Shown: one piece after another, positions 6,001 to 9,000 of the stretch
Layout: each line of letters starts with the position of its first letter
Position numbering within the stretch: position 1 is the stretch's first letter
Assembly: GCF_057098645.1 (NCBI RefSeq)
Contig: NZ_CM169472.1
Reading direction: 5' to 3' (one strand)
Length of the DNA: 64,000 nt
Program-made: the position numbers

Positions 6001-9000
6001 CGGTTTTGACGACCGAATTATTCGAAATAGGGAGTTACGGTACGGGCTCATTAAATATTACGGATAAGGGTTACGTCACGAGTTCAATAGTCGCCATTTT
6101 AGGATATCAAGCGAACAGTAATGGTAAGGTTGTCGTTGAAAAGGGTGGCGAGTGGCTAATAAAAAATAATGATTCCTCAATTGAATTTCAAATTGGTAAT
6201 CAAGGAACTGGGGAGGCGACTATTCGCGAGGGTGGGCTGATTACGGCTGAAAATACGATTATCGGTGGCAATGCCACCGGTATCGGAACCCTGAATGTGC
6301 AGGATCAAGACTCTGTCATCACGGTACGCAGACTCTATAATGGATATTTCGGTAATGGCAAAGTCAATATTTCCAATAATGGACTGATTAATAACAAAGA
6401 ATATTCATTGGTGGGCGTTCAGGACGGTTCCCACGGTGTCGTCAACGTGACCGATAAAGGGCATTGGAATTTCCTCGGAACGGGCGAAGCTTTCCGCTAT
6501 ATCTATATCGGTGATGCTGGCGATGGTGAACTTAATGTCTCGAGTGAAGGCAAAGTAGATTCGGGAATTATCACTGCGGGGATGAAAGAAACAGGCACAG
6601 GCAACATTACTGTTAAGGATAAGAACTCCGTTATCACTAATCTCGGAACTAATCTTGGTTATGACGGCCACGGCGAAATGAATATCAGTAATGAGGGGCT
6701 TGTTGTCAGCAACGGAGGAAGCTCACTCGGTTATGGAGAAACCGGCGTCGGGAATGTCAGCATCACCACGGGGGGGATGTGGGAGGTCAATAAGAATGTC
6801 TATACCACCATTGGTGTTGCGGGTGTCGGAAACCTCAATATTAGCGATGGCGGTAAGTTTGTATCGCAAAATATTACTTTTTTGGGCGATAAAGCAAGCG
6901 GTATCGGCACACTGAACCTGATGGATGCGACATCATCGTTCGATACTGTGGGTATCAATGTCGGTAATTTTGGTAGCGGTATCGTAAATGTCAGTAATGG
7001 TGCCACCCTTAATTCAACGGGCTATGGATTTATCGGAGGAAATACCTCCGGTAAGGGGATAGTTAATATTTCAACGGATAGTCTCTGGAATTTAAAGACA
7101 TCATCTACTAACGCCCAATTGCTACAGGTCGGTGTATTAGGCACGGGTGAACTGAATATTACCACCGGAGGTATAGTAGACTGGCCCCCTGAATCTCCAG
7201 ACAACCAGTATCACTTAAATAAGTGATAGTCTTAATACTAGTTTTTAGACTAGTCATTGGAGAACAGATGATTGATGTCTTAGGGCCGGAGAAACGCAGA
7301 CGGCGTACCACACAGGAAAAGATCGCAATTGTTCAGCAGAGCTTTGAACCGGGGATGACGGTCTCCCTCGTTGCCCGGCAACATGGTGTAGCAGCCAGCC
7401 AGTTATTTCTCTGGCGTAAGCAATACCAGGAAGGAAGTCTTACTGCTGTGGCCGCCGGAGAACAGGTTGTTCCTGCCTCTGAACTTGCTGCCGCCATGAA
7501 GCAGATTAAAGAACTCCAGCGCCTGCTCGGCAAGAAAACGATGGAAAATGAACTCCTCAAAGAAGCCGTTGAATATGGACGGGCAAAAAAGTGGATAGCG
7601 CACGCGCCCTTATTGCCCGGGGATGGGGAGTAAGCTTAGTCAGCCGTTGTCTCCGGGTGTCGCGTGCGCAGTTGTACGTCATTCTCAGACGAACCGATGA
7701 CTGGATGGATGGCCGCCGCAGTCGTCACCCTGATGAGAGACTGCGTGTCACGTTCGCGCTGGACTGCTGTGATCGTGAGGCACTGCACTGGGCGGTGACT
7801 ACCGGCGGCTTCAACAGTGAAACAGTACAGGACGTCATGCTGGGAGCGGTGGAACGCCGCTTCGGCAACGATCTTCCGTCGTCTCCAGTGGAGTGGCTGA
7901 CGGATAATGGTTCATGCTACCGGGCTAATGAAACACGCCAGTTCGCCCGGATGTTGGGACTTGAACCGAAGAACACGGCGGTGCGGAGTCCGGAGAGTAA
8001 CGGAATAGCAGAGAGCTTCGTGAAAACGATAAAGCGTGACTACATCAGTATCATGCCCAAACCAGACGGGTTAACGGCAGCAAAGAACCTTGCAGAGGCG
8101 TTCGAGCATTATAACGAATGGCATCCGCATAGTGCGCTGGGTTATCGCTCGCCACGGGAATATCTGCGGCAGTGGGCTTGTAATGGGTTAAGTGATAACA
8201 GATGTCTGGAAATATAGGGGCAAATCCATATAGTTAAAGCGCGTGATACACAGATAGCTCTCAATGACAAAAGTAAGGGCGACGTGAGGGTGGATGGGCA
8301 GAACTCTCTTCTTGAAACATTCAATATGTACGTAGGGACATCTGGTACGGGTACGTTAACCCTGACGAATAGCGGCACGCTGAATGTCGAAGGTGGAGAA
8401 GTTTACTTAGGTGTTTTTGAACCTGCTGTAGGATCGCTAAACATTGGTACAGCTCACGGTGAGGCGGCGGCAGATGCCGGGTATATAACCAACGCGACGA
8501 AAGTAGAGTTTGGTTCTGGCGAAGGTGTTTTTGTCTTTAATCATACTAATAACAGTGATGCCGGCTACCAGGTCGATATGCTGATTACAGGTGACGATAA
8601 AGACGGAAAAGTGATCCATGATGCAGGCCATACGGTGTTCAATGCAGGGAATACTTATAGCGGTAAAACGCTGGTCAATGACGGCCTCCTGACCATTGCG
8701 TCTCATACGGCAGATGGGGTAACGGGCATGGGTTCGAGTGAAGTAACCATTGCAAGCCCCGGTACGCTCGACATTCTCGCATCAACGAACAGTGCAGGAG
8801 ATTACACGCTGACCAATGCGCTCAAAGGCGATGGCTTGATGCGAGTGCAGCTGTCATCCTCCGACAAGATGTTTGGCTTTACCCATGCAACAGGGACTGA
8901 ATTCGCCGGTGTTGCCCAAGTGAAAGACAGTACCTTCACTCTGGAACGCGACAACACCGCTGCGCTTACTCACGCGATGTTGCAGTCTGACAGTGAAAAT

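Follow-up and report, generated by a model that had tools for sequence, protein, structure and literature searches.

A defective IS2 copy with a 279-bp internal deletion in an autotransporter pseudogene of an Escherichia coli strain close to O145:H28

The locus and the inserted element

The backbone of the window, which is the whole 64-kb stretch of DNA analysed here, is 99.97 % identical over its full length to E. coli O145 strain 95-3192. Relative to that strain it carries three insertions: an IS2 derivative, a 3.8-kb Tn3-family element in ydeQ and an IS5 copy in yddA. The IS2 derivative interrupts an autotransporter gene located between lsrK and hipBA, which is the yneO locus of K-12. The ydbA locus of K-12, itself interrupted by IS2D and IS30C, was considered as the equivalent position and rejected because the flanking genes are lsrK and hipBA. 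The interrupted gene and the boundaries of the element are made up of the following features.

5457–7176, plus strand: 5′ fragment of an ECSE_1600-family autotransporter pseudogene (yneO locus), identified from the RefSeq annotation of syntenic loci
7172–7176, no strand: left copy of the target-site duplication, TATAG, read directly and present once in the empty allele
7177–8228, plus strand: IS2 deletion derivative of 1052 bp (full length 1331 bp), with two substitutions and one 279-bp gap
7177–7218, plus strand: IRL, the left terminal inverted repeat including the promoter region, an exact match to the IRL of IS2
8188–8228, plus strand: IRR, the right terminal inverted repeat ending in CA-3′, identified by its match to IS2 and its inverted arms
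8229–8233, no strand: right copy of the target-site duplication, TATAG, read directly
8229–11687, plus strand: 3′ fragment of the same autotransporter pseudogene, with an older frameshifting deletion of 247 bp at about 9627, identified by synteny and comparison

The 5′ end of the element is the IRL of IS2 and reads TAGACTGGCCCCCTGAATCTCC (longer reading TAGACTGGCCCCCTGAATCTCCAGACAACC), while the 3′ end is the IRR and reads GGAAATATAGGGGCAAATCCA (longer reading CAGATGTCTGGAAATATAGGGGCAAATCCA). Each terminal 30-mer had a single match in the 64-kb window, where shuffled sequences gave an expectation of zero, and the outermost 31 bp of each end are identical to those of IS2D of K-12. The inverted-repeat arms lie at 7186–7218 and 8188–8220. 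As is characteristic of IS2, the terminal repeats are imperfect, with an IRL ending in TA-3′ and an IRR ending in CA-3′, and a perfect 5-bp duplication flanks the element on both sides. The first-pass annotation had described authentic IS2 termini, a perfect TATAG duplication and a length of 1052 bp in place of about 1331 bp. All three descriptions were borne out, the first by exact matches to IRL and IRR that occur once each in the window, the second by the unoccupied allele, which has TATAG only once, and the third by MAFFT alignment and by database matches in two pieces.

Matches to the element were found by megablast in 4,852 of 5,426 complete E. coli genomes. The best of these had 100 % query coverage and 99.8 % identity, always fell into two pieces spanning 1331 bp, and are annotated as 'IS3-like element IS2 family transposase'. 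Of the 1052 retained bases, 1050 are shared with the closest full-length IS2 copies. One of the two substitutions is a C-to-G change at 7450, which is synonymous in orfA; the other is an A-to-C change at 7729. The element shares with IS2D of E. coli K-12 MG1655 its termini, IRL and IRR, orfA, the A6G frameshift site, the 5-bp duplication and the retained part of orfB, and differs from it by a handful of bases, compared with two in 1052 bp for the closest full-length copies. By descent, it is an IS2 element of the IS3 family, IS2 group, present as a defective copy.

The autotransporter gene was already a pseudogene before IS2 arrived. The 247-bp deletion at about 9627, defined relative to KD602 and O157:H7, is also found in strain UTME-3, in which the insertion site is unoccupied, and this shared lesion indicates that the gene was dead before the element landed. 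RefSeq likewise calls the gene frameshifted even in a strain with an unoccupied site. An insertion into a gene that is already dead fits neutral persistence of the element. It had been proposed that the insertion leaves the frame of the autotransporter unchanged apart from the inserted sequence. This holds in so far as both flanks align collinearly with the unoccupied allele. However, the insert and its duplication together measure 1057 bp, a length not divisible by three, and the gene was a pseudogene beforehand. The upstream reading frame enters IRL for 17 codons and reaches a stop at 7226.

The 279-bp deletion and the transposase

Within the element, the deletion and the transposase reading frames are placed as follows.

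7268–7633, plus strand: intact orfA (InsC/OrfA, 121 aa) with an HTH_Tnp_1 domain and a leucine-zipper-like region; the protein equals the reference (Pfam PF01527, E = 1.4e-18)
7573–8217, plus strand: orfB frame with an in-frame deletion, 214 codons open compared with 307, from translation and Pfam
7585–7591, plus strand: intact A6G (AAAAAAG) site of programmed −1 frameshifting, read from the sequence, with its role taken from PMC3219604
7729, plus strand: private A-to-C substitution, T155P in OrfAB, 7 bp upstream of the junction, from base-by-base comparison
7735–7736, plus strand: deletion junction at a GA dinucleotide (2-bp microhomology), from base-by-base comparison and MAFFT

Alignment of the element by MAFFT with K-12 IS2D and another full-length IS2 produced a sole gap of 279 columns, at IS2 columns 559–837. 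The gap can equally be written as 561–839 because GA is present at both breakpoints. Against one full-length copy, the 552 bases to the left match with one mismatch and the 494 bases to the right match perfectly. Repeats longer than GA are absent at the breakpoints, and the restriction of shared sequence to this dinucleotide points to illegitimate recombination, through either replication slippage or minimal-homology end joining. The private substitution at 7729 may date from the event that caused the deletion or from a separate one.

The deletion removes 93 codons in frame. Alignment and translation thus agree with the 279-bp in-frame deletion within orfB noted in the first-pass annotation, and the alignment to full-length IS2 that it had called for fixed the endpoints and exposed the GA microhomology. 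The peptide given there for the junction, with RSRH followed by ERLRV, omits two residues, P155 and D156, of which D156 is retained from IS2 and P155 is the product of the T155P substitution. The orfB frame stays open in the −1 frame to 8217, so that the arrangement of two ORFs with an A6G site typical of IS2 is kept. The predicted OrfAB fusion is 316 aa, compared with 409 aa for the reconstructed reference.

The catalytic carboxylates of IS2 OrfAB are D240, D306 and E342, the catalytic active site extends over residues 236–398, and the leucine-zipper-like motif is separated from the catalytic core by a 'middle interval' (Lewis et al. 2011, PMC3219604). In the reconstructed 409-aa protein these residues fall in WCSDGF (D240), LTDNG (D306) and IAESF (E342). 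The numbering is secure because the residues mutated in PMC3219604, namely W237, H267, R291, V301 and A341, occur at the right positions. A search of PDB sequences with full-length OrfAB returned no match at E ≤ 0.01, and the DDE residues were mapped from the numbering of PMC3219604 together with the Pfam rve domain.

Residues 157–249 of OrfAB are deleted, with the result that D240 is gone while D306 and E342 are kept and the DDE core is incomplete. Also gone are the first beta-strand of the RNase-H-like core, about half to most of the 'middle interval', and the HTH_21 domain, which Pfam places at residues 172–211 of the full-length protein and for which the deleted protein has no match. The rve match covers profile positions 3–102 in the full-length protein and 20–102 in the deleted one, a loss of positions 3–19. 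Untouched by the deletion are the N-terminal HTH_Tnp_1 DNA-binding domain, the intact OrfA regulator and the cis-acting parts of the element (IRL, IRR, the IRL promoter region and the A6G slip site). Compared with full-length IS2, then, the copy is 1052 rather than 1331 bp long, lacks 279 bp including D240 and HTH_21, and carries T155P.

Going by what is known of the retroviral-integrase superfamily, the transposase product would be expected to be unable to cleave or join DNA. The copy is probably catalytically dead because D240 is missing. The earlier prediction that the first catalytic Asp region had been removed and the downstream D and E motifs retained was correct; its corollary, that the copy is probably non-autonomous, is supported at the level of sequence by the loss of D240 and the truncated rve match. 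At best, the copy may be mobilisable or excisable in trans by the OrfAB of a full-length IS2. IS3-family transposases prefer to act in cis, and supply in trans is inefficient.

Empty and scarred alleles of the insertion site in relatives

No IS2 was present at exactly the same nucleotide in any of the complete E. coli genomes (n=5,426). In 66 genomes, IS2 or related IS3-family elements lie elsewhere in the same autotransporter gene; in KD602, for example, a full-length IS2 lies some 180 bp upstream, at the window equivalent of approximately 6992–6996. An insertion shared with these 66 genomes was rejected because none is at the same nucleotide. The state of the site was then compared among genomes with flanks essentially identical to those of the window, in which three states were found besides that of the window itself.

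Pristine state, GGAGGTATAGTTAAAG, with one TATAG: UTME-3 (identical flanks) and nearly all other E. coli lineages
+4 (TATA) state, GGAGGTATATATAGTTAAAG: 23 O145 or O145:H28 genomes
−1 state, GGAGGTATAGTAAAG: RM13516 and RM12761

The joint of the +4 allele reads GGAGGTATA followed by TATAGTT in the 23 O145 genomes, and that of the −1 allele reads GGAGGTATAGTA followed by AAG in RM13516 and RM12761. Both can be written as the occupied site of the window with the element taken out. Joining position 7175 to 8229 recreates the +4 allele exactly, with a 1-bp overlap (A), while joining 7178 to 8237 recreates the −1 allele exactly, with a 2-bp overlap (TA). In both cases approximately one IS length is lost at short microhomologies near the IS ends. 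The +4 and −1 alleles were also considered as the target of insertion, and neither can have been the target because the flanks observed in the window are derivable only from the pristine GGAGGTATAGTTAAAG.

A reference-anchored comparison of approximately 55 kb included the window, 95-3192, RM13516, UTME-3 and an O157:H7 outgroup. Almost all substitutions were private, numbering 14 in the window, five in 95-3192, nine in RM13516 and about 16 in UTME-3, and two characters only were informative: a derived 17-bp tandem duplication at 12937–12953 and a SNP at 13871. Both place the scarred O145 genomes in one group with the window, to the exclusion of UTME-3 and O157:H7. The most economical history, and a likely one, is a single IS2 insertion in the ancestor of this clade, followed by two independent imprecise losses and by retention in the lineage of the window. 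As each lineage has mutated so little, it would be a striking coincidence for two indels of separate origin to fall no more than 2 bp from where the element inserted.

Such a coincidence is what would be required if IS2 had inserted recently in this strain alone and its relatives had acquired the +4 and −1 indels independently of it. Consistent with a private insertion, no relative in the complete-genome set holds IS2 at the site, the clade is backed by only two characters, and the −1 allele has lost a single base from a TT dinucleotide, a change that can arise spontaneously. Taken by itself, the −1 allele could also reflect a precise excision, or a site that never received an insertion, followed by an unrelated 1-bp deletion. 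However, lineages that have accumulated approximately 5–16 private substitutions in about 55 kb nonetheless show two indels no more than 2 bp from the insertion point, and both correspond to the occupied allele minus the element. In addition, a gain of TATA from a (TA)2 tract is not the usual product of slippage, and the resulting allele is not the insertion target, for which the flanks need GGAGGTATAGTTAAAG. We consider an unrelated origin of the two indels unlikely, and a shared older insertion that was lost twice is the preferred explanation of the scars.

Processes able to generate scars of this type have been described. O145:H28 strains carry the IS-excision enhancer gene iee (PMC5567499; PMC9397093). 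Loss of IS3-family elements promoted by IEE requires an active transposase and results in precise as well as other deletions (bioRxiv 10.1101/2023.06.07.543989; PMC9943667). Losses of approximately one IS length at microhomologies of 2–4 bp are documented for ISApl1 and IS30 (bioRxiv 10.1101/2023.06.07.543989), and IEE has microhomology-mediated end-joining activity and lowers the fidelity of nucleotide insertion (PMC9943667). The O145 alleles share with IEE-promoted or microhomology-mediated loss, such as that of IS629 in O157 and of ISApl1 from Tn6330, a product that equals the occupied site minus approximately the element, at microhomologies of 1–2 bp. They differ in that the events are deduced from natural polymorphism, in that the element is IS2, and in that the surviving copy was not excised. 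No direct IEE data for IS2 were found in the IEE literature cited here.

Uniqueness of the deleted allele and origin of the copy

A probe of 80 bp centred on the deletion junction was compared with 5,426 complete E. coli genomes and 72,556 plasmids. The junction was not found in one piece in any of the genomes or in any of the plasmids; the best matches in both sets were in two pieces 359 bp apart, with 79/80 identity. The A-to-C change at 7729 was likewise present in no IS2 copy of the complete E. coli genomes or plasmids. The exact junction pattern had no match in GTDB species representatives, nor, with or without the private SNP, in JGI metagenomes. Protein searches with the deleted OrfB, using two alternative starts, returned no record, which is a weak negative as the products of pseudogenes are often not called. 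No other IS2 ends were found within the 64-kb window, which holds one copy only. This indicates that the deletion is a private lesion and not an IS2 isoform.

The explanation that accounts best for these observations, and that we hold with high confidence, is a defective, non-autonomous IS2 lying in an autotransporter pseudogene on the chromosome of an E. coli close to O145:H28, in which the deletion probably occurred in situ after insertion. On this explanation, a normal IS2 would have inserted by the copy-out/paste-in pathway and duplicated TATAG, before the radiation of the O145:H28 clade. One illegitimate-recombination event between GA dinucleotides 279 bp apart would then have removed OrfAB codons 157–249. 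Other O145:H28 lineages would have lost the element by imprecise, microhomology-mediated excision, leaving the +4 and −1 scars, while the lineage of the window would have kept an inert fossil copy.

The order of events would be reversed if the deletion had occurred first in a donor copy and the defective element had then transposed to this site with OrfAB supplied in trans. Perfect ends and a 5-bp duplication make such mobilisation mechanistically possible, but the searched collections contained no copy with the junction that could be a donor or a sibling, and the general preference of IS3-family transposases for action in cis argues in the same direction. If the scars of the relatives stem from this insertion, the simplest sequence of events is that a full-length element inserted and then decayed in place. 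Prior deletion in a donor is accordingly rated as quite improbable.

Slightly less probable still is an assembly or sequencing artefact that conceals a full-length IS2. Assemblers are well known to stumble over IS copies. This sequence alone has the allele, and the 14 private SNPs of the window in approximately 58 kb are somewhat more than those of two of its three closest relatives. Against an artefact, the lesion is a single clean gap of 93 codons at a 2-bp microhomology, and the IS2 sequence that flanks it is near-perfect. Collapse during assembly seldom removes 279 bp of internal, non-repetitive sequence, and no longer repeats flank the deleted stretch.

There is next to no prospect that the element represents a separate, naturally occurring isoform of IS2 or a propagating MITE-like non-autonomous family with a biology of its own: neither the ends nor orfA are damaged and the deletion keeps the reading frame, as expected of a selected variant, but D240 is deleted and the DDE triad broken, the junction occurs nowhere else in genomes, plasmids, GTDB representatives or JGI metagenomes, and the window has one copy. 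The first-pass annotation had named a natural isoform of about 1.05 kb with an intact DDE triad as the finding that would overturn its view, and such an isoform is excluded because the triad is broken and the junction was found nowhere else among the collections searched. The element shares with other internally deleted, non-autonomous IS copies and fossils its intact ends, a dead transposase and a neutral location in a dead gene. Unlike MITE-like derivatives, which occur as the same deleted element at several loci, it is single and shows no sign of amplification.

Decay in situ of an inserted full-length IS2 is the preferred origin of the copy. A more specific account, to which we give a little under even credence, is that the copy is the last 'frozen' remnant of an IS2 that predates the O145:H28 radiation and that sister lineages lost at least twice by imprecise, microhomology-mediated and probably IEE-promoted excision. 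Its escape from excision would possibly be due to the deletion that killed its transposase. Speculatively, the 279-bp deletion may have protected the copy by destroying the cis-acting transposase that excision needs. On the same account, the deletion possibly represents aborted end joining, and the 279-bp deletion and the adjacent substitution together could be the product of such an event of an error-prone kind.

The element is of a kind already known, being a defective copy of an IS that has been characterised in depth. Insertion sequences in a decayed state are common, and IS2 is among the best studied of all. By itself the finding matters little, the interrupted gene being already dead. 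The alleles of the O145:H28 site are a tidy natural example of the gain, decay and scarred loss of IS2, within known biology. They offer a natural series of states, consisting of an empty site, an occupied site and two excision scars, that is usable to study IS2 loss in EHEC genomes with the IS-excision enhancer, and the series could test whether transposase-dead copies escape excision. The deleted allele is in addition a unique and stable marker of the lineage of the strain.

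Alleles at the IS2 insertion point

The point at which the defective IS2 copy is inserted in the autotransporter pseudogene (window 7172-7178 / 8229-8237) was found to be polymorphic among near-identical genomes, with the following alleles (L coordinates are local to each compared locus):

L005:7143-7156, pristine allele, in UTME-3
L004:10117-10130, +4 (TATA) allele, in O145 strain 95-3192, one of 23 O145 genomes with this allele
L008:7144-7155, -1 allele (one T lost), in RM13516 (O145:H28); also in RM12761

Both the +4 and the -1 allele correspond to the occupied allele without the element, with the junction lying at 1-2-bp microhomology. 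Judged from these sequences, the two alleles look like scars, each left independently when an ancestral IS2 was imprecisely excised.

Condition of the autotransporter gene

Relative to KD602 and O157:H7, a 247-bp deletion at window ~9627 frameshifts the autotransporter gene. This deletion is common to the window, UTME-3 and the O145 genomes, indicating that the gene was already a pseudogene when IS2 arrived. In other lineages, no fewer than 66 complete E. coli genomes carry independent IS2 or IS3-family insertions in the same gene. These fall within the same few hundred base pairs, equivalent to window ~6800-7200 (for example, L002:6317-7649, in the locus of another genome); they differ in nucleotide position, and those inspected shared one orientation. 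A local hot spot for insertion is one possible reading; simple tolerance of insertions by a decaying gene is another.

Other interrupted genes and a clade marker

Further along the window, the fimbrial gene ydeQ is interrupted by a 3.8-kb Tn3-family element (19845-23632), whose terminal inverted repeats start GGGGTTCCGTGGG and whose target duplication is TTTAA. The element was absent from the compared ydeQ sites of O145 95-3192, RM13516, UTME-3 and O157:H7. yddA is interrupted by an IS5 copy (~31939-33134, CTAA duplication) that is absent from the O145 relatives; yddA of UTME-3 carries a separate, independent insertion, ISEc8. The encoded proteins are:

20020-20652, resolvase of the Tn3-family element
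20633-23599, transposase of the Tn3-family element, 988 aa
32086-33066, minus strand, IS5 transposase, 326 aa

In the window's clade, hipA is present only as an internal fragment (12217-12800). A degraded helix-turn-helix gene remnant contains a 17-bp tandem duplication (12937-12953; GGCTACGTCTCAATGAA twice), which was found, besides the window, only in O145:H28 genomes and so serves to mark the clade.
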